Shown here: piece after piece, positions 1-12,860 of the stretch
How positions within the stretch are numbered: the stretch's first letter is position 1
How the letters are laid out: every line of letters starts with the position of its first letter
IMG/VR virus record: IMGVR_UViG_2737471837_000008
Coordinates: 1 to 12,860 of that record
Length of the DNA: 12,860 nt
Source: a virus
Lineage: Duplodnaviria > Heunggongvirae > Uroviricota > Caudoviricetes
Direction: 5' to 3' (one strand)
Translations under genes and position numbers: made by a program
The notes under the pieces: generated by a model
Seen by the model: the letters and a program-made list of their open reading frames with translations, nothing else
Databases searched by the model: none
What the model was told of the DNA's origin: nothing

Positions 1-180
1 TCACCGTCGCGGCCTGTCCGGTTTCTTCCACTGATACGGCCTCACATCATCCTGCTGGTGGCGTTCCTGTTGCAGCACAACGGAAACAGGCGCTGAACAC
101 CTGTTAATTTTGCTTGCTGGTTGTTTGATTTCGGCAATGCTGCGGATCATCTCCAGCATATCGGCTTCGGTGATGGTCAT
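1..180 (-). CDS. hypothetical small protein (59 aa, MTITEADMLEMIRSIAEIKQ...)
   Basis: ATG at 178-180 preceded by AAGGTG about 7 nt upstream; stop TGA at 1-3. Below the ORF-track size cutoff. No recognisable family. Confidence 0.3.
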   Translation of the reverse strand: MTITEADMLEMIRSIAEIKQPASKINRCSAPVSVVLQQERHQQDDVRPYQWKKPDRPRR

Positions 181-204
181 GATTTACACCTTAGGAAATC
201 TTAG

Positions 205-480
205 GGGCTGGTTGACACTTTCCGGCTTAAGACCTTAACAAATCTTAACATCGCAGGTTGACACACTTGACACTTTTTCGCGAAAAACCTTATCAAACCT
301 TAGCATTTCTAAGCATGGCAACTTGACACTTTTCGCGATTTTTTCGGCTTTTTGACGTGGTAAATCTGGCGCAAAGCCAGTAACGGCGGGGTTTACAGCG
401 AGGTTGACACTTTTTCGCGTTCAGAGTGTAAAGTGTCAACCCGGCAGACGGCCTGACTTGACACTTTTCGCGAATTTTAC
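205..480. repeat. iteron array: four copies of TTGACAC-TTTT(T)CGCG plus partial and inverted copies
   Basis: Full units at 267-283, 323-338, 404-419, 458-473; half-sites GGTTGACAC at 211-218 and 257-264; inverted GTGTCAA at 433-439 facing TTGACAC at 458-464. Second motif CCTTAACAAATCTTAACA / CCTTATCAAACCTTAGCA at 233-250 and 289-304. Lies directly 3' of the winged-HTH gene. Confidence 0.6.
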
Positions 481-485
481 GGTCA

Positions 486-1010
486 TTAATGGGATGATTT
501 TTCCCACTCAGCCAGGGCGTTTAGTCCGGCTTCACTCCAGTTATCCAGCTCATCGGGACAATCACCTGCAACATAGCAGAGCTCACAACGCAGCATACGA
601 ATTGCCAGCCTGGCATTTTCCCGAAAATCATACTGCTCAAAGTAATATTGCCCAGCATAATCCTCAAGGCAGATAGCACCATCATCAAGAAATTGCACTT
701 CACAGCATAATTCCCCGGCTGCATCCTGCACACGCTGCTGTATGTCATCGTCCGTTACTGGTGCAGGGATTTTACCGTCTCTGGCCTTAACTGCTTTCCA
801 GAACTCGCCCCACGTCATTTCCAGCGTTCTTTCTGGCCACATTTCAGAAACGGTGTCTTTCCCCTGTGCTGGTGGGCTGTTCCGCTGCTCTGTCGCCTCC
901 ACATCAATTTTTTTGCCAGACATGATCACTTCGCCTTTCTCGATCCAGTCGTAAACTGTCTGGCGGCTTACGCCTTTGTGTTTAGCATATTCTGCTTTAC
1001 TCATTAGCAT
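486..1010 (-). CDS. MerR/Nu1-type winged-HTH DNA-binding protein with C-terminal Cys cluster; candidate TerS-like / packaging-redirection (Rpp-like) or excisionase-like protein
   Basis: N-terminus MSKAEYAKHKGVSRQTVYDWIEKGEV matches the excisionase/Nu1 HTH pattern; six Cys between residues 102 and 151 (C-x2-C-x5-C at 142-151). ATG at 1008-1010 with GAGAGGG 5 nt upstream. Function inferred, not demonstrated. Confidence 0.6.
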   Translation of the reverse strand: MLMSKAEYAKHKGVSRQTVYDWIEKGEVIMSGKKIDVEATEQRNSPPAQGKDTVSEMWPERTLEMTWGEFWKAVKARDGKIPAPVTDDDIQQRVQDAAGELCCEVQFLDDGAICLEDYAGQYYFEQYDFRENARLAIRMLRCELCYVAGDCPDELDNWSEAGLNALAEWEKSSH

Positions 1011-1019
1011 ATTGCCCTC

Positions 1020-2057
1020 TCATGAAATAACGTTGTGTGCTGTCTGCCCCTGTGACTTCAGCTTGTTTTCAGCATATGCCTCGAACACCGTCACCCACGC
1101 ATCACCATCGGCAGTAAGATACGCTCCGATGTGGCGAACGGACTTAACCAGAAATTTTCCGGTGAACGTGGTCGAGTTTTTGGAGATAACACTGGGCGCT
1201 GTAGTATTAGTCATGAGGATCGACGATGCTCCTGAAAACATTCCCTGAGGCAGTTCGATCACATCACTACACCGTATATCTCCCCGCAACGGGCATTTAA
1301 AACTGACGGTAAAAGGCTTTATCCATGTTGGTTGGCCTATTAATTCATAAGGTTCAATTTTCTTTATTTTCCCCAGTTCCAGTGATGAATTATCATAAAG
1401 ACGAATGCGATCTGGTAACATAATAATGCCTACCCCGCTATATCCTTTCTGACGAATAATCGCTTTCGATAAACTTCGCACAGCCATAGCCAGCGAACCT
1501 ATATCAAGGTAAACCAGTGGAATATCTTCAGGTAAAACCAGGTTATCACTGACCGAGGATTCAATAATTTTATCTGGATACGCCTGTTTCAAAACACGCG
1601 ATAACACGTCTCCTAATTTTTCTCCCTGAAATCCAGTACCGCTAAATCTCACAGGAGAACCATCTTCTTTTTTTCTATAAACGGGGTTAACAACCAGATT
1701 CAACGTCTGGTTGGTGCCAATCCAGTTAGCATAAGCCATATAGACTTCACCATAGATAATCTCTCCCTGTTGATCTGGATTAGCCAAAGGAAGTCCAGAA
1801 GCAAAGCCAGCAGTTAAGCTAACAATGCATCCGTTGAGATTTACACTTTGCTGTAACATCTCAATAGGTAAGCCATAAATTGTCAGCATCGTTCCGGAAC
1901 CAACAACATCCAGGCCGGTTACTTCAAAGTCAAATTCAACATGCAACCCACATCCTGGTGTTTCACTGGTATCAAAAGGCCCAATGGGGTTCCCATTGCT
2001 ATCCACTGGCGGCTTACCAGTTTTAGGGTTAATAATTTCCAGTCGGTAATAACGCAT
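1020..2057 (-). CDS. hypothetical protein, 345 aa, beta-rich, no recognised family
   Basis: Long ORF with protein-like composition; ATG at 2055-2057 overlaps the upstream stop (TAATG); 9-nt gap to the downstream winged-HTH gene. Confidence 0.7.
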   Translation of the reverse strand: MRYYRLEIINPKTGKPPVDSNGNPIGPFDTSETPGCGLHVEFDFEVTGLDVVGSGTMLTIYGLPIEMLQQSVNLNGCIVSLTAGFASGLPLANPDQQGEIIYGEVYMAYANWIGTNQTLNLVVNPVYRKKEDGSPVRFSGTGFQGEKLGDVLSRVLKQAYPDKIIESSVSDNLVLPEDIPLVYLDIGSLAMAVRSLSKAIIRQKGYSGVGIIMLPDRIRLYDNSSLELGKIKKIEPYELIGQPTWIKPFTVSFKCPLRGDIRCSDVIELPQGMFSGASSILMTNTTAPSVISKNSTTFTGKFLVKSVRHIGAYLTADGDAWVTVFEAYAENKLKSQGQTAHNVIS

Positions 2058-2392
2058 TAGTAAACCTCGAACTGATTAGTACTTTCACGAAAAATGAGCT
2101 TTCCCGGAGCAAATGGAAGTGCCAGATTGATGTCGTAACCATCAGGGGAAGCAATCAGAGGCGTGTATACAATGACCTCACCAGAACTGTTTTTCAGTTC
2201 CAGATAATAGCGATTCGCATACAGATTGAACGGAACACGGGCAAATAAAATTTCCCCTCCCATCCTGAATTTAAATTTGAAAGGTTTTTCCCCATCAGGT
2301 TTGAATGGTATAAAAGTATTCATACTCCAGACTCCTGCACAATTTGATTCTTGATACCTGACAATGATTGCCACTAAATTATTTAGTGGCAT
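2057..2392 (-). CDS. hypothetical protein, 111 aa (or 88 aa from internal ATG)
   Basis: ATG at 2390-2392, 7 nt after the stop of the 223-aa gene; alternative start at MNTFIPF with AGGAG upstream. Beta-rich; no recognised family. Confidence 0.55.
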   Translation of the reverse strand: MPLNNLVAIIVRYQESNCAGVWSMNTFIPFKPDGEKPFKFKFRMGGEILFARVPFNLYANRYYLELKNSSGEVIVYTPLIASPDGYDINLALPFAPGKLIFRESTNQFEVY

Positions 2393-2399
2393 GATTCAC

Positions 2400-3071
2400 T
2401 CACTCTGTTTTTTCCAGTTGAGCCAGCCGCCCGGATATTTCTTCCAGTTTTTCCAGGGCTGGCTTGCAGGCCGCATCAATAACGTCCCGGACCATTCCGG
2501 CAAGCTGCTCTTCTGCTGTCGGCGTTGTTACTTCCACACCTGATGGTTTCCCGCCCTTATCCCATACGCCCAACGGCACGAGCGCAACGTGATCGATAAG
2601 AAATGGCGTACCCTCAATAAAAAAATTGTCCTCGCCCATTACATCAGGAACTTCTGCCCCACCGGACGCACCACAAAACACAACCGACGGGCTGGTGGAT
2701 ACCTCCCCCCGTGCTTTCTGGATGTAATCGATGATTTCCTGCCCGTAAATCCGGCATACGCCCCACACCTCGTCACCGCGAATATACGGCAACATAACGG
2801 TGCCAATAATGCGCGACCGTTCGCCCACGTCTTCAAGGGTTTTGCTTTCGGGATGGTCGATAATGACGGGTACTCCGGCGCAACGTTCCAGGAACTGCGG
2901 ATTGAGATAAGTTTGCGGTGAACGCCAGACAAATTCTTTTTCTTCGGCGCGGTAGGCCATGCCCGTCCCTGTAATACGCAGGTTAACCAGCCACATGTTG
3001 GAGAACTGATAAGGCGACGGTAGCTGACCGTCCCGAATCTGCTTCGCCGCCTCAATTTCTGTTAAAAGCAT
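2400..3071 (-). CDS. hypothetical protein, 223 aa, with G-A-S-G-G (GxSxG) motif; possible serine hydrolase/protease
   Basis: ORF with ATG at 3069-3071 (no obvious SD). GASGG at residues 134-138 and His73 in VIIDHPE. Enzymatic assignment is inference from the motif alone. Confidence 0.65.
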   Translation of the reverse strand: MLLTEIEAAKQIRDGQLPSPYQFSNMWLVNLRITGTGMAYRAEEKEFVWRSPQTYLNPQFLERCAGVPVIIDHPESKTLEDVGERSRIIGTVMLPYIRGDEVWGVCRIYGQEIIDYIQKARGEVSTSPSVVFCGASGGAEVPDVMGEDNFFIEGTPFLIDHVALVPLGVWDKGGKPSGVEVTTPTAEEQLAGMVRDVIDAACKPALEKLEEISGRLAQLEKTE

Positions 3072-3135
3072 AATGTTATCCGGTTATAAGCAATAAGCCC
3101 CGCCAAATCCGGCAGGGCTGAACTCAGCACGTTTT

Positions 3136-3714
3136 TCATGCCCCCGCGAGGCTTGCAGTGTTAATTTTGACCAGGCGACGGGGAGGGATTTTGAAAGCAC
3201 TAAGCCAGTTATTCGGATCCCCCTGATATTCAGTAATCCGCCGTCCGTCTTCATCCATTCTTACGGTTTTACGCAAATAGCCCGGCGTATTTTCCACAGC
3301 CCACTGAACACTGTCTTTTGCAGCCTGGTAAATCTGATCTTCCAGCACCGCCAGCGTTGCAGAATCTGAAACGGAACGAATATCCACATCACTGAATTTT
3401 TTAGCCAGCTTCTGTGCACCAATTAATGCACGCTTGCGGTAATCCATCGACTTTTCACCAGCAAACGGGGCTGGAGCGCGACGGCCCATATTGCTGTATG
3501 CGGAATCTGCTTTAGCCTGGGCTTCTGCCAGTGAGGATTCATCTTCGACTGACGCGACGATGTTTTGATTAGCGTTATCCTCTTTTATGAAATCCTGTGC
3601 GGGGATCGCATTCAGAATTTCGATAATCTCCTGCGGAGTGCTGCCCTGCGACTCTGACAGAGCGTTAACCACCTCCATCAGTTTTAATCGCAAATCTTCT
3701 TTGCTTGCTGGCAT
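3136..3714 (-). CDS. hypothetical protein, 192 aa, helical with acidic low-complexity segment
   Basis: ORF track starts at GTG 3723; the ATG at 3712-3714 (MPASKEDL...) with GAGAGGTGG upstream is the more likely start. No recognised family. Confidence 0.6.
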   Translation of the reverse strand: MPASKEDLRLKLMEVVNALSESQGSTPQEIIEILNAIPAQDFIKEDNANQNIVASVEDESSLAEAQAKADSAYSNMGRRAPAPFAGEKSMDYRKRALIGAQKLAKKFSDVDIRSVSDSATLAVLEDQIYQAAKDSVQWAVENTPGYLRKTVRMDEDGRRITEYQGDPNNWLSAFKIPPRRLVKINTASLAGA

Positions 3715-3752
3715 TTTTACCACCTCTCTTTTTCACCAAAAAATCACGACCA

Positions 3753-3932
3753 TCAGGCCGGACGTTCTACGGGATAAAGCGCCCGCTGCATTAAACGCCG
3801 GGCGACCTCATGAATGCTCGGAGCAATCCCCAGCGGAGAATTGCGGCGTTCCTCGTCCTGGATGCGCTGTAATGCTTCAATCTGATCACGAGCGAGTAAA
3901 ACGGGTTTCACGCTGGCTTTTCTCATAGTCAT
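3753..3932 (-). CDS. small protein (57-59 aa), possible RHH-like DNA-binding protein
   Basis: ORF-track start is TTG at 3950; ATGs at 3930-3932 and 3924-3926 follow AGGAG. Sequence MTMRKASVKPVLLARDQIEALQRIQ... has a strand-helix-helix pattern. First gene after the terminators. Confidence 0.45.
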   Translation of the reverse strand: MTMRKASVKPVLLARDQIEALQRIQDEERRNSPLGIAPSIHEVARRLMQRALYPVERPA

Positions 3933-4050
3933 ATCTCCTGAACAAAACAATGGTTATGATTGCATAAACTGAAATGATGATCTACATCATTGCAATTTAT
4001 GAAACAATAACGCATGATGATCGCGTTCTTCCCATTGACTTCAATCACCT

Positions 4051-4122
4051 GAAAAACAAAGCCCGCAACACTTCTGGCTGCGGGCTTTTTACTGGCACAA
4101 AAAAGCCGGGAAAAATCCCGGC
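4051..4122. terminator. tandem intrinsic terminators (one bidirectional) just 3' of the PerC-like gene
   Basis: Hairpin GCCCGCA(4061-4067)/TGCGGGC(4079-4085) flanked by A-run 4052-4060 and TTTTT 4086-4090. Second hairpin GCCGGGA(4105-4111)/CCCGGC(4117-4122) preceded by AAAAAA 4099-4104, i.e. a T-run on the minus strand. PerC-like stop is at 4128-4130. Confidence 0.6.
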
Positions 4123-4127
4123 CTCCG

Positions 4128-4415
4128 TCACTGACTGCAATTTTTCGATCCAGGGTATTTCCTGAATGCCTTACCATTGGGCTGATGTAATCCCATCCCG
4201 GCATGTGCCCGGCTGATGGTTTCGCGCATCTCCCCGAAATTATCCTGCCTTGCTGGTGGGCGTGCTGCCTTGCGGATACATTCCGCGCGACGTTTTGCCG
4301 CCTGTTCCCGTGCCTTGTCATCATTCGCCAGCATGATGACCTCAGCCCACCGCGCCGCCGCTCTCCGGTACAGACCACGCGCTTCCAGTGCTTCCGCTTT
4401 GCTGTCGTGAATCAT
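4128..4415 (-). CDS. PerC-family transcriptional regulator-like protein (95 aa)
   Basis: AEALEARGLYRRAAARWAEVIM... matches the PerC/Pch family signature as I recall it. ATG at 4413-4415 overlaps the upstream stop (ATGA); AAGGAG upstream. Confidence 0.7.
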   Translation of the reverse strand: MIHDSKAEALEARGLYRRAAARWAEVIMLANDDKAREQAAKRRAECIRKAARPPARQDNFGEMRETISRAHAGMGLHQPNGKAFRKYPGSKNCSQ

Positions 4416-4990
4416 GCGCCTGTTTTCTCCTTTGCTGCCCGGCGCTGACGTTTGCGCTTCTCATTCAGCGCCACCAGCCGCGTTTCTGCGTCCTGTTGTT
4501 CCTGTGGTGTCACCTCGCCGCACGGCTGGCCTTTCAGGTCGTAACGTGCACCACCAGCCATTAAGGCGCGGTAATAGCGCGGAGACTGCGCATAAGATGC
4601 CAGCGTCGCACGTAATGCCCCTGGCCCGAATGCCAGCCCCCTGACGGCGAGATCCTGCATCAGGTCGTCGAATATCCCCACCTTAAGCGGCTTCGGTGCT
4701 TCCCGGCTGAATAATTCAGGCCACAACTCAGTGAGGCGGTTAACGCGCCTGCGGTTTTTGCGCTGGCGTTTGGTCATATGCCGCCACGGTGTCGCCCCTG
4801 TGGGCTTCTGCTGCGCTTTCTGGTTACCGGGCATCACTTTATGCGCCGATGTGGTTTTATCCTGCTCCTGTGCCGCCTGCGTCGTTTTCTGCGGCGTGCC
4901 GTAAATGCCTTTAGGTTTTCTGTTAATGGTCAGCGTTGTCATGCTTTGCCCCATCGTTTTTACTGATTGTTTCATGCCCGGCACTTTCAT
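4412..4990 (-). CDS. FinO/ProQ-domain RNA-binding protein (RNA chaperone family)
   Basis: WPELFSREAPKPLKVGIFDDL...LRATLASYAQSPRYYRALMAGGARYDLKGQPCGEVTPQEQ aligns with the ProQ N-terminal FinO domain (PLKIGIFQDL...LRSALRLYTSSWRYL...RVDLDGNPCGELDEQ). Start uncertain (ATGs at 4990, 4975, 4954, 4942); lysine-rich N-terminal tail. Confidence 0.8.
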   Translation of the reverse strand: MKVPGMKQSVKTMGQSMTTLTINRKPKGIYGTPQKTTQAAQEQDKTTSAHKVMPGNQKAQQKPTGATPWRHMTKRQRKNRRRVNRLTELWPELFSREAPKPLKVGIFDDLMQDLAVRGLAFGPGALRATLASYAQSPRYYRALMAGGARYDLKGQPCGEVTPQEQQDAETRLVALNEKRKRQRRAAKEKTGA

Positions 4991-5282
4991 CTACCGGATA
5001 CCACGCAAATGATCCAGGTTCATCAGAAAGAATGAATTTTGTGTTTGGCAAATACATGCATTCGTAAAAACCATCTTCCTGATGATACGGTGCCATTCCA
5101 TACTCACCAGTAAGAATCGGTAATATTTCAGAATAAATTTCTGAATCACCAGAATAAAACACATCACAAATCGCCCATGCTGCAATCGGACTATACCAGT
5201 CGTTGCCATTGTCATTCCTGAATTTCGCCCACCACCCCTGAACCGCTGGCGAAATATTTTTTGGTATGGCTTCAAGAAACAT
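4923..5282 (-). CDS. hypothetical protein, 119 aa, aromatic-rich
   Basis: ATG at 5280-5282 with AGGGGG 5 nt upstream; overlapping opposite-frame ORF 4991-5332 looks like junk. No recognised family. Confidence 0.5.
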   Translation of the reverse strand: MFLEAIPKNISPAVQGWWAKFRNDNGNDWYSPIAAWAICDVFYSGDSEIYSEILPILTGEYGMAPYHQEDGFYECMYLPNTKFILSDEPGSFAWYPVDESAGHETISKNDGAKHDNADH

Positions 5283-5357
5283 ACAACCCCCTTTGCAACT
5301 CTATTTCTATATTTTCGTGATAAAAATGCCAATTATTCACACTATTCCATTTTGATT

Positions 5358-5635
5358 GTGAACAGTCGTGAATAGTTAGTGAACAGTTTTTCAATAACTG
5401 TTCACCATGTTTTTTAGTTTAAAATCATATGGTTATTTTGTTTCAGTGAACAGTTGAACAGTTACCCCCTATAGAATTTAATTTGCAGTGAAAAATGATT
5501 CACCGTTACAAGTTACAATGCGTTTTAAAAGTTTTAGCCGAAACTGTTCACGCCGTTCACTTCGTCGATGAATCCAGTAATGACGCGGCTTTTAGAGGTG
5601 AACAGTAGTGTTCAGTAGTGTTCACAACTGTTCAC
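5358..5635. repeat. replication-origin-like iteron cluster (GTGAACAG / CTGTTCAC) around AT-rich spacers
   Basis: GTGAACAG at 5358-5365, 5379-5386, 5446-5453, 5598-5605; variants at 5368-5375 and 5454-5461; CTGTTCAC at 5398-5405, 5544-5551, 5628-5635; tandem TAGTGTTCA at 5606-5625. AT-rich 5406-5445 and 5461-5490. Starts at the primase/helicase stop codon. Confidence 0.7.
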
Positions 5636-7404
5636 TTTTCATGGATTTTTGGCACAGCGGGTAACCATTCATTGGCACTATCAGCCAACTCCATGTTGTA
5701 GCGCATTCCGACATTGGTCTTTGCCTTCTTGTACTCAGCCCCATATTCTTTCATCACTTTTGGAAAATCTTTGCCAAAATTCGTTAGATTTAATGGCTTA
5801 TCGAAACCATAAGCATCCATATATGCAAGATATGCATGGTAGAGATAAATGCGAGGGGCTCTTGGATATATATTCAGGTTTCCCATGAACATTCCTACAG
5901 CTTCACCAAGTTCGACAATATGGTTACAAAAAGCATATAGCGGATCAGTATGGCGTTTTACTTCCATTGCTTCTTCACCATCACGTTGTTCGAGCAGTAA
6001 TGTTCTTGCTTTTTCGGGATCTGAAAAATTTACCAACAGCCTACGGACTATTACCGGAATTTCTGCTGCGATTTTTTTTGGTAAACATGTGTCCTTGTTT
6101 TCTTCCGCTATCGGATTATTGAACTGAAAAATAACCCTACGGCGTGAAATACCTCCCGCTCTTTCTGTAAAAACCATCGGTTTATTATTTGTTATCAAAA
6201 CAACTGAGCGTAAGACGGTGGTGTATCTTTTTTCATATTTCGGATTAATTTGCAGAGGATCCCCACCTGTTATAGCTTTAATACCATTACCTTCGCCAAA
6301 ATATTTAGGTTGGTCCGGTAAAATAATCAGACTTTTACCAACCAGTTGCTCACGTCCACCAGCATCATCTAACGCTTTCATATCACTGCCTGCGGTGTTC
6401 TGCTCACCCGCCAACATTCTGGCAATTTGAGTAAACATACTTTTACCACTTCCACCTTCGCCAGTTGCTTCAATGAATAATTGCCAGTCGTAGCGATTAG
6501 CCAAAACCATAAACAGAGCAGCACATATCCGCTTCATCTTTGATGAATCGTATCCTGCTGCATGTGACAGCCAACGATGAAAATGGGGCGCATGGTCATG
6601 AATATTTTCACCAAGCGCAGGTGGCGTATAATAAATTCCATTATGCGAAGTGATCCAGTGCTCTGGTGAATGAGGTAAAAATCTACCACTTGTTATGTCA
6701 TAAACTCCATTTTCAAAAGGTATTATGGTGTCACGCTGTTCTCTCATTACGGGTACAGATATTTTTAAAGCATCAACCGCGTTACTAATTGCCCGCTTAC
6801 TGAAATTTGTCTTATTTTTTTCGTAAATTGATACCATTTTACGACTCAACTCCATATCAGATATTTTTTTCCACACTCCAGAACAGTATGCATAAGCAAA
6901 ATTGTTACCAGGGTGAACAGCTATTTCCTCAAAGCATTCAGCCAAAAGTGAAGCCCGCTCGTTATCCGCCATTCTGGAAAGAGATATTTTGTGTTTTTTC
7001 TCAGTCCTTACTGACAGAATATCCCCGCGCTCTGCCTGTTCGCGGATCCGTTGCAGGTAGTCGCGCCAGTTCTCCGGCTCCCGGTCGGTGATACCTTTGT
7101 ATAATTTCGCATCCTGTACGCCAGCCAGCGCCAGCTTTTCAGCGATAGCATTGATCTGGATTGGTTCGATCTCCCCAGCGAGATAGACACGCGCAAAGCG
7201 GCGTTCATCGTCGACAATGCGGATATTCGCCAGGTCTGCCAGTTGCTTCGGCCCCAGGTAAACAGGTGGCACGTTATCGCCGTGTTTTCGTCCTTCGCTT
7301 TCAATCCAGTGTTGAGCATGGGCATAAGCGTCCGTCCCGGCAAAAATGATTACCTCGGTGAATTTATCCTTCGGCTGATATTTTAAATTCGGTGCGTTTT
7401 TCAC
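5632..7404 (-). CDS. P4-family primase/helicase-type replication protein (D5-like SF3 helicase domain)
   Basis: 590 aa with Walker A GEGGSGKS (GX4GKS) and the overall pattern of P4-alpha/D5-type C-terminal helicases. GTG start at 7402-7404 overlaps the upstream stop (GTGA); first ATG is about 143 codons in. Confidence 0.85.
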   Translation of the reverse strand: MKNAPNLKYQPKDKFTEVIIFAGTDAYAHAQHWIESEGRKHGDNVPPVYLGPKQLADLANIRIVDDERRFARVYLAGEIEPIQINAIAEKLALAGVQDAKLYKGITDREPENWRDYLQRIREQAERGDILSVRTEKKHKISLSRMADNERASLLAECFEEIAVHPGNNFAYAYCSGVWKKISDMELSRKMVSIYEKNKTNFSKRAISNAVDALKISVPVMREQRDTIIPFENGVYDITSGRFLPHSPEHWITSHNGIYYTPPALGENIHDHAPHFHRWLSHAAGYDSSKMKRICAALFMVLANRYDWQLFIEATGEGGSGKSMFTQIARMLAGEQNTAGSDMKALDDAGGREQLVGKSLIILPDQPKYFGEGNGIKAITGGDPLQINPKYEKRYTTVLRSVVLITNNKPMVFTERAGGISRRRVIFQFNNPIAEENKDTCLPKKIAAEIPVIVRRLLVNFSDPEKARTLLLEQRDGEEAMEVKRHTDPLYAFCNHIVELGEAVGMFMGNLNIYPRAPRIYLYHAYLAYMDAYGFDKPLNLTNFGKDFPKVMKEYGAEYKKAKTNVGMRYNMELADSANEWLPAVPKIHEK

Positions 7405-7691
7405 TTCTTACCTCCCGCAACCAACATTGCCCGGATTTTTTTAATATTCGTGGCTGCACGTCTCGCCACTGCCTGTTGTTTGTTTTCCACCAGAATAAAA
7501 TCACGATCAAACTGACGGCGCGGCATTACGCAGTCATATTCGTAAACCTCACGGCGGTAGGTGATATTGCCTGGCGTAACGTGACGAATAACCACTCGCC
7601 CCCCACGTCTGGTGTCGCGGTAAATATCTCCGTGTCTGATTTCAGGCCGAGAGAGACCGCTGGCAGTAAAGCCAGAATTTTTCTTTTTCAT
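7401..7691 (-). CDS. hypothetical basic protein, 96 aa, translationally coupled to the primase/helicase
   Basis: ATG at 7689-7691 with AGGAAA upstream; stop overlaps the helicase GTG start. No recognised family. Confidence 0.6.
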   Translation of the reverse strand: MKKKNSGFTASGLSRPEIRHGDIYRDTRRGGRVVIRHVTPGNITYRREVYEYDCVMPRRQFDRDFILVENKQQAVARRAATNIKKIRAMLVAGGKK

Positions 7692-7695
7692 GGTT

Positions 7696-7896
7696 TTATT
7701 TTCCTGTCAGCAGTTCCGGTTTTATTTCCGCACGAATACAGAGTTCAGAAAAAAATTCAGGAGAACCAACAATCTCATTACTTTTCAGTCGGCATTGTGA
7801 TTTCACTTTCCCTTTATCCAGGTAAACCAGTACGCGTCCGGTGAAATCATCTGGCACACTCAGGTTAACTGTCATTGTTGCAGGCTGATTACCCAT
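7696..7896 (-). CDS. small protein, 66 aa, single copy of an FTG-x-LV...NG-V-S...L module
   Basis: PDDFTGRVLVYLDKGKVKSQCRL...SPEFFSELCIRAEIKP aligns with both halves of the neighbouring 121-aa protein. Start overlaps the upstream stop by 8 nt. Confidence 0.6.
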   Translation of the reverse strand: MGNQPATMTVNLSVPDDFTGRVLVYLDKGKVKSQCRLKSNEIVGSPEFFSELCIRAEIKPELLTGK

Positions 7897-8254
7897 GATT
7901 CACCCCCTGAATGACCTGATAACCGCAACTGGTCAGCAACTCGATAAATTCCGGCAGTGTTCCGAAACAGCAATCATCTCGCAGCCGTTCTCGGGATACT
8001 TCAACGCCGTTTTCGTAGTGACTCACCATGCGTCCGGTAAAATGCAGATCATCATCGTGATGGCTCGTTAACGGCTTAATCAGTCGCGCACGTTCTGCCA
8101 GCTCCAGCAATGCTTCAACGCTTCCGGCAATTGCACCATCCGGCAGGTGATAATTACTTGCCACGCGTCCATTCTCCACGTTAACCAGTAGCTGCCCGGT
8201 GAATTTCTCATCAAACTGAATGCTGTTAAGGTCAGAAATTGACAGGTTATGCAT
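7889..8254 (-). CDS. small protein, 121 aa, tandem duplication of the same ~50-aa module
   Basis: DEKFTGQLLVNVENGRVASNYHL...SVEALLELAERARLIKP and DLHFTGRMVSHYENGVEVSRERL...LPEFIELLTSCGYQV. ATG at 8252-8254 preceded by AGGAGGT; overlaps the upstream gene as ATGCATAA. Confidence 0.65.
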   Translation of the reverse strand: MHNLSISDLNSIQFDEKFTGQLLVNVENGRVASNYHLPDGAIAGSVEALLELAERARLIKPLTSHHDDDLHFTGRMVSHYENGVEVSRERLRDDCCFGTLPEFIELLTSCGYQVIQGVNHG

Positions 8255-8450
8255 GGTGCACCTCCTGGCGAATACGGGCGGCGAATACCATCACGCAACC
8301 AGCCGGGGATTGCTGGCGCGCTTCCTGTTCGCTGGTGGCCTCGATGTGAATCACGCGCGGTTGTGCCGTACTCAGGGCGATAAAACGCCAGATGTATTTA
8401 TTCAGGTTGTGCGAGTCCCGCCCTTGCGGGTGTGTGGTATGATTTAACAT
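8247..8450 (-). CDS. hypothetical protein, 67 aa (MLNHTTHPQGRDSHNLNKYIWRF...)
   Basis: Internal ATG at 8448-8450 with GAGG 6 nt upstream; this is the C-terminal in-frame part of the 403-aa ORF-track entry. First gene of the leftward replication operon. Confidence 0.5.
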   Translation of the reverse strand: MLNHTTHPQGRDSHNLNKYIWRFIALSTAQPRVIHIEATSEQEARQQSPAGCVMVFAARIRQEVHHA

Positions 8451-8539
8451 AGCTACCTCGATACTTTCGCTATCGTTGGTGGTTAGAAGCCCCGTTACTG
8501 CTCCAACAGTGCGGGGTTTCGTCATTTTATGACTGATAA

Positions 8540-8640
8540 AAATCAAGTGTCGGACACATGTTATTTTATCGGTGTGGGACACGTCAAGCATTGCATTAAA
8601 CTTTTTTCTCGCTATCATTGTCGGACACCAAACCAATCGG
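8540..8640. promoter_or_regulatory. divergent promoter/operator region with repeated TGTC-G-GACA palindromes
   Basis: TGTCGGACAC at 8548-8557 and 8619-8628, variant TGTGGGACAC at 8573-8582, inverted variant at 8696-8704. Candidate rightward promoter TTGCAT(8591-8596)-16 nt-TATCAT(8613-8618); candidate leftward promoter TTGACG(rc 8582-8587)-18 nt-TAACAT(rc 8558-8563). Confidence 0.45.
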
Positions 8641-8649
8641 AAATCAGAA

Positions 8650-8829
8650 ATGGCAACGAAATCAGTAAATGCAAAATCGAAAAGAATAGATGCACGTGTC
8701 CCACTCCATATCGTTGATGCCATGGATAAGGTCAAAGAAGACGGCGAAAGTACAGGGCAGTTTGTAACAGCCGCATTAGAAGGCGAGATCAAACGCCGCC
8801 AGCGTCGCAAGGCCAAAGAGCAGGAGTAA
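8650..8829 (+). CDS. ribbon-helix-helix (CopG/Arc-like) DNA-binding protein, 59 aa
   Basis: MATKSVNAKSKRIDARVPLHIVDAMDKVKEDGESTGQFVTAALEGEIKRRQ fits a strand-helixA-helixB RHH layout with a basic tail. Only convincing plus-strand gene; opposite-strand frame through it reads as Ser/Leu/Cys-rich junk. Confidence 0.6.
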   Translation: MATKSVNAKSKRIDARVPLHIVDAMDKVKEDGESTGQFVTAALEGEIKRRQRRKAKEQE

Positions 8830-8886
8830 CCATCACTAGCGCCGTGGAGTGATGAACTGTGGCGCACAGGGTTACAGGTATATACG

Positions 8887-9063
8887 ATGACTGACAAATC
8901 ATTAAAGAAATTATCCTCATCCAGGAAAAAACAACGCAAAAATGCGGTAAGCGAACAAGAACAGGAAAGATTCGCACCTTGTTCGTTTGCTCTTGAGAAA
9001 TTCCTTAAAGAGCACAGGAAAAAGCTCTCGTTGCAAACCTTGGAACGAACCAAATCTGACTGA
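8887..9063 (+). CDS. possible small basic protein, 58 aa (MTDKSLKKLSSSRKKQRKNAVSEQEQERF...)
   Basis: ATG at 8887-8889, stop TGA at 9061-9063, downstream of the RHH gene on the same strand. Weak SD; below the ORF-track cutoff. Confidence 0.3.
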   Translation: MTDKSLKKLSSSRKKQRKNAVSEQEQERFAPCSFALEKFLKEHRKKLSLQTLERTKSD

Positions 9064-9458
9064 TCACATTGCCCACCAGCCGCAAATGTGGCATTGTTGG
9101 TGATGCGTTCAAGTATGTAGCTTTTCCACTGGCGGCTCTCTGCGGTCGCCTTTGTTTTATCCAGAACGAAATCAGACATCAGATTGATCAGCACCTGGCG
9201 ACCTGACAAAATCGCATCAGTCGCGCCACCAGCAAAATTTTTTGCTTTCCGGACAGCGTGGCCAACGGCATTTTGCAGCAAAATATTCTGCATTTCTGGC
9301 GTGCTGTAGTAACGGTGATCAGTGCCTTCACATTGAACGAACTTGTCGCTAAAATTCACCCACATAGCAAACATCGCGGTGCTGTAGGTAATTCGTTCAC
9401 AAAGGCGCTCCGGCAACGGGGCGCTTTCTCTTTTTGTAACGGTCAGAGCGTTACACAT
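9064..9458 (-). CDS. hypothetical protein; convincing only over roughly the first 130 codons, 3' end undefined
   Basis: ATG at 9456-9458 overlaps the antirepressor stop by 8 nt. Protein-like composition to about 9064, then junk-like sequence antisense to the plus-strand genes, with no stop until 8247. Confidence 0.4.
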
Positions 9459-10299
9459 GGCTGTTTTCCTCCATGCGACGGGCTAACCAACGCTGCGAAA
9501 GACGAATTAATTCAGCCTTCCGCTGGTGGTAGTCCTGGCCTAACTCAATCAGCGTGATATTGCTCTGCTCAAGGTAAGAAAGGTGCTCAAGCTGCAACGT
9601 GCTCATGTGGTCGCGTGGTTCGCCTGTGATGCCGTTCGCCTGCGCCCACTGTTTTGCAGTCATGCCACCCAGCACGATACGCGCCAGCATATTGGCTTCC
9701 GTGGTGTAGTGGTGCTGGAGTGTGTTTTTACCCAGTTCAGCCCGGTACGCCTCCAGCGCGGCGCACATCGGCTTAAAGTAGCTGGCAACGGTGATACGGG
9801 CTTTCAGTTCCCTGCGTAACGCTGCGGAACGCACTGGCGCTACCTTGTGTAGCTCCTCCTCGCATTTGATGAAGTACTGACGAACGGCGCGGCCCTGTTC
9901 GGTGCGTTCGACCATCGCCAGTTCTTTCGCCATGTTCGTGGAGATCAAATACTCTTCACTGCGACGATCACCGCCGCGCTTTGTTGTCCAATCAGAATCA
10001 AACTGTTCAATATTTACACTTTGGTTCCCCCGTTTCGGGGAATCAAAGTACAAATTTTCTACAACTTCAAAATCCACGCCATTTTTAAATCCGTACTCAT
10101 CAATGCGTCCTTTAATCCAGGTTGTGAAATCACGCTTCACACCCAGCGCCTTATGCAACGCTCTGGCGCTAACAATATTGGTTTCACGCCCGCCAATAAC
10201 ACCGGAAATAACCGGGATAATATCGCCGAAATTTTGCAGATTCTGGTTTTCAGGCCGAACGAAGCCCTGCCCCTGTACGGGCGTTTTTGGAAATTTCAT
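9451..10299 (-). CDS. AntA/AntB-family phage antirepressor-like protein (282 aa)
   Basis: N-terminal IPVISGVIGGRETNIVSARALHKALGVKRDFTTWIKGRIDEYGFKNGVDFEV matches the AntA antirepressor domain pattern. ATG at 10297-10299 with AGGAG 6 nt upstream. Confidence 0.75.
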   Translation of the reverse strand: MKFPKTPVQGQGFVRPENQNLQNFGDIIPVISGVIGGRETNIVSARALHKALGVKRDFTTWIKGRIDEYGFKNGVDFEVVENLYFDSPKRGNQSVNIEQFDSDWTTKRGGDRRSEEYLISTNMAKELAMVERTEQGRAVRQYFIKCEEELHKVAPVRSAALRRELKARITVASYFKPMCAALEAYRAELGKNTLQHHYTTEANMLARIVLGGMTAKQWAQANGITGEPRDHMSTLQLEHLSYLEQSNITLIELGQDYHQRKAELIRLSQRWLARRMEENSHV

Positions 10300-10376
10300 A
10301 AAAACTCCTGCTATCGAATTAAGTTACTTTTATTTGCTGGTGGATAGCTGGGGGCAATAGCCCCGTAGCCATTTAA

Positions 10377-10574
10377 TCAGGTAGCTGTTCCGCGTGATTC
10401 CGCAATACGCTGATTAATCCACTCGTCAATTTCACTCTCAACGAAAGCAATAGCTCGCGAGCCAATTTTAACTGATGCAGGAAATTTACCTTGCCCCATA
10501 AGGCGATAAATCCATGCCTTGCTATATCCAGTTCTACGCTGAACTTCCGTTAAACGAATAAGAGAGTTTGCCAT
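10377..10574 (-). CDS. alpA: AlpA-family phage transcriptional regulator (65 aa)
   Basis: MANSLIRLTEVQRRTGYSKAWIYRLMGQGKFPASVKIGSRAIAFVESEIDEWINQR matches the AlpA pattern including the EIDEW motif. ATG at 10572-10574 with AAGGTG upstream. Confidence 0.9.
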   Translation of the reverse strand: MANSLIRLTEVQRRTGYSKAWIYRLMGQGKFPASVKIGSRAIAFVESEIDEWINQRIAESRGTAT

Positions 10575-10833
10575 ATATTCACCTTGTAACGTCTATAAAG
10601 GTGTACATAGCTTGCATTAAGAAAAGTGATATTTATAGATGCTTACCATTATGAATGGCGAATACCATTTCAGTGAAATAGCTCCACCTTTTTTTAATAA
10701 TGGCGTTTACTATTTTAAGTATCATGCTGACGTGAAACACGAAGAAAAATTACTGTTCTTACGATTTAATCTGCATTGGTGGTTACTTTTTTTTGAAAGG
10801 AAACCACCATTTTTCTGGAATAGCGACCACTAT
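10575..10833. promoter_or_regulatory. AT-rich alpA upstream region with perfect 8-bp inverted repeat
   Basis: TGGTGGTT (10777-10784) and AACCACCA (10802-10809) separated by 17 nt; about 260 bp of AT-rich non-coding sequence. Regulatory role is inferred. Confidence 0.4.
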
Positions 10834-11547
10834 TTAACTTTTTGTTTTTTTTGGTCTTCTACCAATACGCTTCAGATGTTCAGGCCTTAAAATCAGATTC
10901 ACAGCCCTAGCAACATTAGAACCCGCCCCCCTTTTTTTCAAATATTCAAGTACCTCATGCTCTGTCGGAGCCGTCTGTGGGTCATCTGGGTCATACGTCG
11001 ACCATAGTTCCCTTATAGCATCCTGCACATACTCCAACCCATCACTCTTATGCCCATAAGTACACAAATACTCGTCAGGATTAATTACCTGATGAGATGA
11101 TTCAATGATTGCTGGCGGATTAACTTCCTTAACAGGTATAGGGCGAGGGCATCTCGCAAAATCAACGCTCTCATTTTTTATCCACTCATATAAAGAATGG
11201 CGACTAATTAAAGTTTTATCCTTGCTTATCTCATATGCACGATCGGTCAGTTGCGCTGATGTCAGACGTTTGTACTCAATATCACAAACATTTCCCCAAT
11301 TATCGTACTCAACTATTTCAGAGGTACATTCAACAGGAGTTAAGACACCACGACGGATGGCTGTTACCATTCCATTAGCCAACCCCCATGCCATTTTCCA
11401 ACGTTCATGTTTATTATCTCTGACATGTTCAAGAGTAGGGTAATCATAAGGATCAATTCCGGCCAACAATAAAGCGGCCTGGGTGATAGAAAACTCCTGT
11501 ACTGTTCGCCAGTGGGATAAGTCAGGAATGTTTTCCACAATTGGCAT
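10834..11547 (-). CDS. hypothetical protein, 237 aa, between integrase and alpA
   Basis: ORF track starts at TTG 11562; ATG at 11545-11547 (MPIVENIPDL...) follows AAGGGGGAG. Basic C-terminal tail (RIGRRPKKTKS). No recognised family. Confidence 0.65.
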   Translation of the reverse strand: MPIVENIPDLSHWRTVQEFSITQAALLLAGIDPYDYPTLEHVRDNKHERWKMAWGLANGMVTAIRRGVLTPVECTSEIVEYDNWGNVCDIEYKRLTSAQLTDRAYEISKDKTLISRHSLYEWIKNESVDFARCPRPIPVKEVNPPAIIESSHQVINPDEYLCTYGHKSDGLEYVQDAIRELWSTYDPDDPQTAPTEHEVLEYLKKRGAGSNVARAVNLILRPEHLKRIGRRPKKTKS

Positions 11548-11645
11548 ATTCTCCCCCTTCAAGCGATCTAATGTTAAGGCCGATCCAGCTCTGTTTGCAT
11601 CAGCCTTTTTAGGTGCTCAAAGTCTACTACTGTATACTCAACCAG

Positions 11646-12860
11646 TCACCCGCATTTTCCGAACTCACCATGCACCACATTTCCGCCATGCTCGAGCGAA
11701 TCCATATAGTCGGCATACCACTGGAGCATCTCCCGGCGACCATCCAGATATTGCGCATGGTTGTATGTGCCACGAATTGAGTTTTTATCGACGTGTGCGA
11801 GCTGCGTCTCTATCCACGCGGTGTTATAGCCCTGCTCATGCAAAATGGTGCTCATGGTGTGCCGGAATCCATGACCAGTAACGCGCCCGGCATAGCCGAT
11901 ACGACGAATGAGCACATTCATCGCCATTTCACTCATTGGCTTACTGTGGTGAATACGACCGGGGAAAATAAACTGATACTGGCCTGTCATGTTTTTTAAC
12001 TGCTCCAGTATTTTTATCGCCTGTTCTGGTAATGGCACACAATGCGGACGGCGCATCTTCATTCGTTCTTTAGGCACTTCCCACAAACGATTATCAAAAT
12101 CGATCTCCTGCCATTCTGCCTGCCGTAATTCCCCGGGTCTGACACCTGTCAGAATTAATAGCCGCATTGCCAGTTTGACGATCTGGCTTCCGGTGTACGT
12201 ATTAAAAACGCGGAAAAATTCCGGCAGTTCGTCGGCCTTCAAATAGGCGTAATGCTCTTTTTTATGTGGAGCAAATGCGCTCACCAGGTCAGGGGCTGGA
12301 TTATATTCGGCGCGTCCGGTGATGATTGCGTACCGGAACACCTCGCCGCATCGCTGGCGAACCTTACGCAATTTTTCAGTCGCACCACGGTCATTAAGAC
12401 GGGAAAGAACCGCCAGCAATTCCATCGGCTTAATTTCTGCGATCGGCCTACCGCCAATGTACGGAAAAACATCTTTTTCAAACGTCTCGATCATTTCCTC
12501 GGCGTATGACGATGACCACCTGTCGATCCGCTTTTCGTACCATTCGCGAGCAATACCCTCAAAAGTATTGCCAAATTTGCTCGCCTGTTCTCGCTTTTGG
12601 GCTTTTCTGGCCTCACTTGGATTTATACCACCAGCAAGAAGCCTTTTAGCCTCATCCCTTGCCGCCCTGGCATCAGACAGAGACACATCAGGGTACACAC
12701 CCAACGACAACATTTTGGGCTTTCCTGCAAACCTGTAGCGCAGTCGCCACCCTTTCGAACCGTTCGGCTCAATGAGCAACGAAAGCCCGTTACCGTCATT
12801 GAGTGTATAAGCCTTTTCTTTCGGCTTCGCGCGCCTGATGGCAAGGTCTGAAAGCAGCAT
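11646..12860 (-). CDS. int: tyrosine site-specific integrase, P4-type
   Basis: N-terminus MLLSDLAIRRAKPKEKAYTLNDGNGLSLLIEP...VSLSDARAARDEAKRLL is typical of P4-like integrases; catalytic HGFRHT and RGTYNHAQY motifs present. ATG lies on the last three bases of the window, so the true start may be a few codons beyond it. Confidence 0.95.
   Translation of the reverse strand: MLLSDLAIRRAKPKEKAYTLNDGNGLSLLIEPNGSKGWRLRYRFAGKPKMLSLGVYPDVSLSDARAARDEAKRLLAGGINPSEARKAQKREQASKFGNTFEGIAREWYEKRIDRWSSSYAEEMIETFEKDVFPYIGGRPIAEIKPMELLAVLSRLNDRGATEKLRKVRQRCGEVFRYAIITGRAEYNPAPDLVSAFAPHKKEHYAYLKADELPEFFRVFNTYTGSQIVKLAMRLLILTGVRPGELRQAEWQEIDFDNRLWEVPKERMKMRRPHCVPLPEQAIKILEQLKNMTGQYQFIFPGRIHHSKPMSEMAMNVLIRRIGYAGRVTGHGFRHTMSTILHEQGYNTAWIETQLAHVDKNSIRGTYNHAQYLDGRREMLQWYADYMDSLEHGGNVVHGEFGKCG

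Follow-up and report, generated by a model that had tools for sequence, protein, structure and literature searches.

What function is served by two small repeat proteins encoded just upstream of the replication genes of a phage satellite? The question is raised by a 12,860-nucleotide stretch of viral DNA (class Caudoviricetes; positions 1 to 12,860 of IMG/VR record IMGVR_UViG_2737471837_000008), here called the window, in which all genes of a chromosomal island are carried by the minus strand. Two of these genes encode proteins of 121 residues (7889-8254) and 66 residues (7696-7896) that are built from a module with a characteristic FTG motif and are referred to below as the FTG proteins. Both proteins are further members of a known but uncharacterised family, listed as PHROG 340 and as Pfam 'Rem'. 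Their genes occupy what looks like a cassette-exchange locus of satellites, and size, composition, gene order and the exclusion of other roles suggest that they could be protein-binding effectors acting early after induction.

The repeat and its coding sequences

The first-pass annotation placed two copies of the module in the 121-residue protein and one in the 66-residue protein, and made this description depend in advance on statistical support for the repeat alignment. Such support was found. In Smith-Waterman comparisons (BLOSUM62 matrix, 5000 shuffles), the N-terminal half of the 121-residue protein scored 56 against its C-terminal half, compared to 20.4±3.9 for shuffled sequences (z = 9.1), and 79 against the 66-residue protein (z = 15.1). 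The C-terminal half scored 47 against the 66-residue protein (z = 6.9). The observed score was attained by 0 of 5000 shuffles in each of the three comparisons. Module 1 comprises residues ~14-58 of the 121-residue protein (DEKFTGQLLVNVENGRVASNYHL...GSVEALLELAERAR; 8081-8215) and module 2 residues ~68-116 (DLHFTGRMVSHYENGVEVSRERL...GTLPEFIELLTSCGYQVIQ; 7907-8053), and the single module of the shorter protein comprises residues ~15-60 (~7717-7854). The phrog_340 profile matches the 121-residue protein in two stretches (E = 3.3e-29) and the 66-residue protein once (E = 1.1e-17); a match to phrog_2512 spans residues 33-111 of the former. The repeat is visible also in the DNA, as a family of 35-nucleotide direct repeats with one copy in module 1 (8169-8203), one in module 2 (8007-8041) and one in the 66-residue protein gene (7811-7845). 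The copies are 66-77% identical and correspond to the codons of FTGRxLVxxENG.

The ratio of nonsynonymous to synonymous substitution rates (dN/dS) of the 121-residue protein gene is 0.11-0.19 in six pairwise comparisons, which means purifying selection and shows that this open reading frame (ORF) encodes a real protein. Pairwise dN/dS values of up to 1.35 were obtained for the 66-residue protein gene. They are inflated because the N-terminal head of the protein (residues 1-15) is variable, with at least two allelic forms (MGNQPATMTVNLSVP and MHNHEAHVPVVLNVP), while the module itself is almost invariant. Between genera the module is conserved at ~30% identity, Gly20 being invariant and Phe18 and Gly29 nearly so. 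The 121-residue protein is acidic, with an isoelectric point (pI) of 5.05 and a charge of -9; the family is mildly acidic overall, with a median pI of 5.7.

Relationship to Rem and distribution of the family

Rem (b1561), a protein of the Qin prophage of E. coli K-12 and the founder of Pfam family PF27490, is a remote homolog of the module. When Rem and the Rem-like protein P0176 were compared with the module alignment (A3) by hhalign, a probability of 96.6% was obtained (E = 6.8e-10, 45 columns). With the module profile, hmmsearch gave Rem 27.2 bits, compared to no more than 9.1 bits for any of 5000 shuffled sequences. The aligned part of Rem is its C-terminal 45 residues. Like the FTG module, this small protein of a prophage early region has a hairpin, a helix and an AGF strand, but it lacks the FTG motif and carries an extra N-terminal hairpin, as though it consisted of '1.5 modules'. 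Precomputed PF27490 matches, graded 'weak', exist for a number of homologs (P0022, P0023, P0187, P0188, P0138, P0145, P0153 and others) but not for P0015, the cluster representative of the window's 121-residue protein. PHROG families 340 and 2512, whose profiles match the window proteins directly, are phage families with no function assigned. With its 85 profile positions, phrog_340 fits the single-module proteins of temperate phages, such as STM0898.2n of Fels-1, whereas the window has a two-module and a one-module protein in tandem.

Scans of both proteins against NCBIfam and against a copy of Pfam-A that lacked the PF27490 model gave no domain match, and PADLOC found nothing in either. The initial impression of an unrecognised module thus holds in so far as no well-characterised domain is matched in Pfam, NCBIfam, the Protein Data Bank (PDB) or PADLOC, but the module had already been catalogued twice, as PHROG 340 and as PF27490. 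The rem gene is one of those listed as uncharacterised in K-12 (PMC11551758), and for this reason membership of the Rem family does not provide a function. A literature search found nothing on PF27490, on DUF4222 in connection with satellites or on the function of rem, and the paper on the phage-inducible chromosomal island (PICI) EcCIMP1 does not treat these genes. In a Rac-like prophage (GenBank MN652886.1; L192 5967-6227) a Rem homolog carries the depositors' label 'prophage antirepressor', for which no supporting publication was found.

The family is small. When 1.84 billion representative proteins were searched exhaustively with the profile, only 97 matches at E ≤ 1e-3 were obtained, and P0176 was retrieved in a search of this size at E = 3.3e-4. 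Nearly all members are 55-135 residues long and have either a single module or two; those with a named source belong to Enterobacterales. Fusions are rare: the module is joined to a Bro-N domain in P0130 and to a DnaG-type CHC2 zinc ribbon in P0167, a distant member, and a module-linker-module form also occurs. The exact 121- and 66-residue proteins are present in public databases as 'hypothetical protein', each on more than 100 contigs, and over the 1.2 kb compared (7300-8500) the window is identical to a chromosomal island of E. coli 08-00022. No relatives were found in a plasmid collection, and no relative of the 121-residue protein itself in a phage collection.

Predicted structure of the module

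The 66-residue protein was predicted by AlphaFold2 from 32 diverse sequences with a predicted local distance difference test (pLDDT) score of 84.8. The model has an extended N-terminal segment, a β-hairpin formed by residues 21-27 and 30-37, and an α-helix comprising residues 46-55. The same layout describes the module in general, namely an extended N-terminal segment followed by a hairpin (FTGRvLVyvENGkv.s...L) and, beyond a loop, by an amphipathic helix (F.ELa..AG). In most family members a short strand, 'AGYxV', comes last, after the helix. Fold searches of the PDB and BFVD with this model gave no structural neighbor, and sequence searches of the PDB, whether the protein or the module profile was the query, gave chance matches only (designed armadillo proteins and a hairpin of RNF4). 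Because the monomer is confidently predicted, yet not compact and without neighbors, the fold of such a unit may be completed by pairing with another.

Two repeat families bear a partial likeness to the module. The hairpin of MORN and MORN_2 repeats (G-x-x-x-V-Y-x-E-N-G-K-x) is similar, MORN_2 proteins are among the weak multi-stretch matches of the module profile, and a MORN-repeat protein is among the non-significant fold matches in BFVD. However, the window proteins have no Pfam MORN match, and the helix of the module is absent from MORN repeats. The second candidate was the armadillo repeat, a three-helix unit of ~42 residues, which was suggested by phmmer matches covering residues 45-116 of the 121-residue protein (best E = 1.7e-4, no stretch passing alone). 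It was ruled out by the prediction of a hairpin and a helix, and the PDB profile search does not recover it. Both likenesses look local, compositional or confined to a hairpin, and not like homology; with MORN a single hairpin is shared.

A variable cassette slot in satellites

The genes on either side of the FTG genes define a slot. It is opened by a leader ORF of the Icd-like or P4-cI type (8247-8723), which is called 'host cell division inhibitor Icd-like protein' in RefSeq and matches phrog_6196 (E = 2.5e-54). The stop of the leader and the start of the 121-residue protein gene share the 8-nucleotide overlap ATGCATAA (8247-8254), upstream of which is the Shine-Dalgarno sequence AGGAGGTG. 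In the same manner, the stop of the 121-residue protein gene and the start of the 66-residue protein gene share ATGGGTAA, preceded by GGGGGTG; the ORF coordinates agree with the 8-nucleotide overlap reported previously for these two genes (7889-7896). Four nucleotides separate the stop of the 66-residue protein gene from the start of the gene that closes the slot (7401-7691). The product of the latter is a very basic DUF4222 protein of 96 residues (pI 10.95; PF13973, E = 6.8e-18). Its stop shares four nucleotides with the GTG start (7404) of a 590-residue D5_N/DUF5906/Pox_D5 primase-helicase, which corresponds to the C-terminal region of P4-family primases according to Pfam, NCBIfam and PHROG matches (5632-7404). 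No terminator-like site was found on the minus strand between the 121-residue, 66-residue, DUF4222 and primase genes. The proposed position of the FTG genes directly upstream of the 96-residue and primase genes is therefore correct, and these genes form one string of overlapping or abutting genes with embedded Shine-Dalgarno sites. A 403-residue ORF in the mechanical ORF list (8247-9458, minus strand) has no gene annotation, and only its 3' part, 8247-8723, is called by RefSeq. A YlcI/YnfO-family gene (8650-8829, plus strand) runs antisense to the leader region.

In other satellites the slot contains an array of two to five small overlapping ORFs that varies from island to island between the Icd-like leader on one side and DUF4222 and the replicase on the other. 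The regions compared were 7401-8723 (minus strand) in the window, 3102-4795 in L002, 745-2702 in L104, 4600-5900 in L105-L108 and 6984-8584 in P4 (L101). The slot ORFs, given by their lengths in residues, are 121 + 66 in the window and L102, 74 + 121 + 77 + 66 in L002, 76 + 74 + 121 + 77 + 77 in L104, a 97-residue recombinant + 66 in L103, a collapsed 67-residue allele + 66 in L193, and 69 + a 66-residue FTG protein in Klebsiella satellites. Cassettes other than FTG encode unrelated helical proteins. Most junctions consist of a AGGAGGTG-like Shine-Dalgarno sequence inside the upstream gene, four nucleotides, and a ATGNNTAA-type 8-nucleotide overlap, and because of this common junction most slot products end in ...HA or ...HG. 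The overlaps and embedded Shine-Dalgarno sites indicate translational coupling of these co-directional genes. Judged from this arrangement, the slot looks like a cassette-exchange locus of P4- and PICI-type satellites.

The 121-residue protein gene also occurs in altered forms. In numerous collapsed or hybrid alleles the head of module 1 is joined in register to module 2 or to the module of the 66-residue protein (P0045/P0048, P0032, P0036, P0038, P0050, P0069 and P0043; L193 2501-2704; L103 1694-1987), from which repeated unequal crossing-over between modules can be deduced. At least one of these alleles stands within an intact operon. These observations fit the view that one- and two-module forms can replace one another.

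The junctions would also be explained if the ORFs were spacers that pass ribosomes from the leader to the DUF4222 and primase genes, the peptides themselves having no function. Embedded Shine-Dalgarno sites and ATGNNTAA-type overlaps recur throughout the array, and a precedent exists in phage P1, where the antirepressor gene ant lies directly after icd, is translationally coupled to it, and depends on icd translation for its own. This explanation is hardly credible, however, for proteins of which one is under strong purifying selection, the fold of the other is predicted confidently, and the module is conserved across genera around Phe18, Gly20 and Gly29 and recurs in unrelated operons.

A more substantial proposal is that the proteins assist or regulate replication together with DUF4222 and the primase-helicase, for instance as a loader, an origin adaptor or a copy-number regulator. 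The continuous same-strand arrangement up to the primase is compatible with such a role, as are the fusion of P0167 to a primase-type zinc ribbon and the succession of an acidic protein and a very basic one. The comparison of islands argues to the contrary. Near-identical FTG genes are followed by replicases of at least three unrelated types (D5/P4-type, DUF927-Toprim and RepA/AAA_25). FTG DNA is present in 399 of 5426 complete E. coli genomes (~7%), compared to 1382 of 5426 for the wider DUF4222/Icd region, so that most related islands with DUF4222 and a primase lack it. Pectobacterium and Klebsiella satellites, in turn, have FTG genes and no DUF4222. Moreover, the lambdoid relatives described below are encoded in the early-left operon, across cI from the replication genes, and no nucleic-acid-binding signature occurs in the family. 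The variation of the replicase and the absence of FTG genes from most related islands point to accessory proteins, not replication factors, and the suggestion of the first-pass annotation that they regulate replication is unlikely to be right.

Comparison with phage P4

In P4, a cI/Icd-like ORF is followed by epsilon and orf151, each entered through an 8-nucleotide overlap, and then by orf106 and the alpha primase. As with the FTG genes, epsilon and orf151 come after the leader, have embedded Shine-Dalgarno sites and precede a small DUF protein and a primase. The C termini of the leader ORFs are also alike: LSLAARLPVVEVSRA in P4, LSLAARLPVQEVRHV in Klebsiella and MVFAARIRQEVHHA in the window. 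The common layout, junctions and leader C termini place the FTG genes in the epsilon/orf151 slot of P4. The likeness does not extend to the proteins, because epsilon has 95 residues, is not repetitive and has no detectable sequence similarity to the module. A search with the module profile (hmmsearch --max) of P4 epsilon, orf151, orf106, the cI ORF and orf88 gave nothing meaningful, and homology of the module to epsilon or orf151 was rejected on this basis. Rfam scans of the upstream region for an RNA of the P4 CI or P1 C4 type gave no match at the gathering threshold or at E ≤ 1.

P4 epsilon acts on the C repressor of P2 and thereby derepresses the helper. By analogy, the 121-residue protein as a pseudo-dimer, and perhaps the 66-residue protein too, might bind the repressor that a resident helper prophage encodes, inactivate it and so trigger or reinforce induction of the helper. 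Interference with a helper phage was the other role suggested by the first-pass annotation, whose functional interpretation is at best partly supported; the synteny with epsilon is the only support for this possibility. The 121-residue protein gene is exactly in the position of epsilon, right after the leader; P1 icd-ant and P4 cI-epsilon are precedents for an antirepressor in such a place; the Bro-N domain, found fused to the module in P0130, is common in antirepressors; a Rem homolog is labeled 'prophage antirepressor' in MN652886; and a dimeric repressor would be a fitting target for a protein with two modules. Nevertheless, this role appears rather unlikely. Besides the lack of similarity to epsilon and orf151, members of the family occur in lambdoid early-left operons and, in the case of Rem, in a nin region, where there is less reason to expect derepression of a helper. 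An AntA/AntB-family protein is already present among the products of the island, and in Gram-negative PICIs it is reportedly the helper that induces the island and not the reverse. No evidence was found behind the MN652886 label, and an AntA-module fusion (P0051) turned out to derive from a deletion in an island and not to be a designed one. The 121- and 66-residue proteins have no AntA/AntB, Bro-N or KilAC domain according to Pfam.

Family members in lambdoid phages

The module is not confined to satellites. In lambdoid prophages, distant members with a single module are encoded in the early-left operon, at a position between the CI-type repressor gene and int. Such genes occur in Fels-1 (STM0898.2n), in Escherichia phage LMessi and in several prophages of Klebsiella. 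The rem locus is different from both the early-left and the satellite positions, because in Qin the gene is in the nin region, just downstream of relB-relE-hokD. The lambdoid cassette starts with a gene for a 123-residue protein, after which come up to two FTG genes or none; genes for a 73-residue ParE_like protein (PF24732) and then for a 137-residue protein may follow, both being optional (e.g. L007 6583-7804). The 123-residue protein seemed by eye a plausible homolog of the module and was rejected (hhalign probability 0.3%).

The neighborhood of the ParE-like gene was examined in 16 loci selected by FTG (L005-L020) and in 80 viral loci selected by the ParE-like gene (L021-L100). The loci come from closely related phages, so that their counts are not independent and are descriptive only. 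An FTG gene is directly followed by an overlapping ParE-like gene (PF24732, E = 1.9e-20) in 13 of the 16 loci, the remaining three having no ParE-like gene, and lies immediately upstream of one in 63 of the 80. The other 17 have no FTG gene, and there the 123-residue protein gene, which is present in 80/80, abuts the toxin gene. Each of the 80 loci has an FTG gene or the gene for the 137-residue protein, never neither.

With its small product and its overlap with a ParE_like gene just downstream in many lambdoid prophages, the FTG gene recalls the type II antitoxins of ParE and RelE. The FTG proteins could accordingly be imagined as partners that neutralize RelE/ParE-superfamily toxins, the satellite copies being orphans that disarm a toxin of the host or helper. 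In addition to the counts of 13/16 and 63/80, the location of rem close behind relB-relE-hokD is in favor of this idea. The pairing is optional both ways, though, and because of the 17 ParE-like loci lacking FTG and the three FTG loci lacking a ParE-like gene, an obligate antitoxin role was rejected. The 123-residue protein is the better partner, being found at every ParE-like locus, and neither the window nor its relatives encode such a toxin. The Pfam and NCBIfam scans and the hairpin-helix model reveal no ribbon-helix-helix (RHH), helix-turn-helix (HTH), AbrB or Phd domain in the module, DNA-binding domains of this kind being typical of type II antitoxins. With the positive counts drawn from closely related phages, an antitoxin function is quite improbable.

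Possible function

The reading that we prefer, with a probability of about 40%, is that the FTG proteins are non-enzymatic early effectors that bind a protein target in the host or the helper, acting in dimeric or pseudo-dimeric form. The two small proteins, translationally coupled and carrying between them three Rem-family modules of ~45-50 residues, are encoded by optional accessory cassettes, which are transcribed and translated along with the early operon. The module would be a protein-protein interaction unit without enzymatic activity. Proteins with one module would act as homodimers, and the 121-residue protein would be an intramolecular pseudo-dimer. Both would bind a protein of the host or of the helper phage stoichiometrically, early after induction, and would stand outside the replication machinery. 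A binder is favored over an enzyme or a DNA-binding protein because the proteins are tiny, mildly acidic and devoid of catalytic, HTH or RHH signatures.

Several points weigh against this assignment. None of the homologs has a known function, and the mechanism is derived from how small the proteins are, what they are composed of, where their genes lie and which roles were excluded. From the position shared with epsilon it follows only that accessory genes are tolerated in the slot, where the remaining cassettes encode unrelated helical proteins. Furthermore, the AlphaFold2 model of the 121-residue protein, calculated from a shallow alignment, has a pLDDT of 47 and is for this reason unusable for the question of the pseudo-dimer.

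A bolder version is doubtful at present. It takes Rem-family modules to be effectors through which satellites and temperate phages of enterobacteria act on a helper or host, and the 121-residue protein to be a pseudo-dimeric counterpart of epsilon (an antirepressor or an anti-defense binder) that manipulates the helper.

The island and its surroundings

The first gene of the island is an integrase (11646-12860), followed on the minus strand by genes for a 242-residue protein, an AlpA-family regulator and the AntA/AntB-family protein, which lead to the Icd-like ORF. After the primase come ProQ/FinO-like, PerC-like and DUF2213 protease-like proteins, a match to a 'baseplate hub' PHROG and a 174-residue TerS-like HTH protein. 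This gene order corresponds to the architecture of a Gram-negative PICI or a P4-type satellite.

In the late region (486-3723, minus strand) the 174-residue protein has a TerS-like or excisionase-like HTH (phrog_57), the protein matching the 'baseplate hub' family has 345 residues (phrog_196, E = 8e-37), and the two halves of phrog_6216 are matched by the DUF2213 protease-like protein and a 195-residue protein. The island stands in tandem with a different integrative element. Immediately past window position 12860 (L001 14833-19201), the island integrase is adjoined by a major capsid protein gene and by another tyrosine integrase, which has the opposite orientation. The other end of the island is flanked by a sieB (superinfection exclusion) gene.

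Significance for satellites and temperate phages

The most useful by-product of this analysis is the slot, which is variable, translationally coupled and positionally equal to the epsilon slot of P4, and which is a sensible place for seeking helper-manipulation or anti-defense genes in P4- and PICI-type satellites. Any function found for the FTG proteins would annotate a family that, in its satellite form alone, is present in ~7% of complete E. coli genomes, and that occurs also in Fels-1-like and Klebsiella prophages and in Qin of K-12, where Rem is part of the 'y-ome'. If the 121-residue protein were indeed a counterpart of epsilon, the variable position behind the Icd-like leader could be regarded as a 'helper-manipulation' locus in general, and Rem of K-12 would receive its first function.

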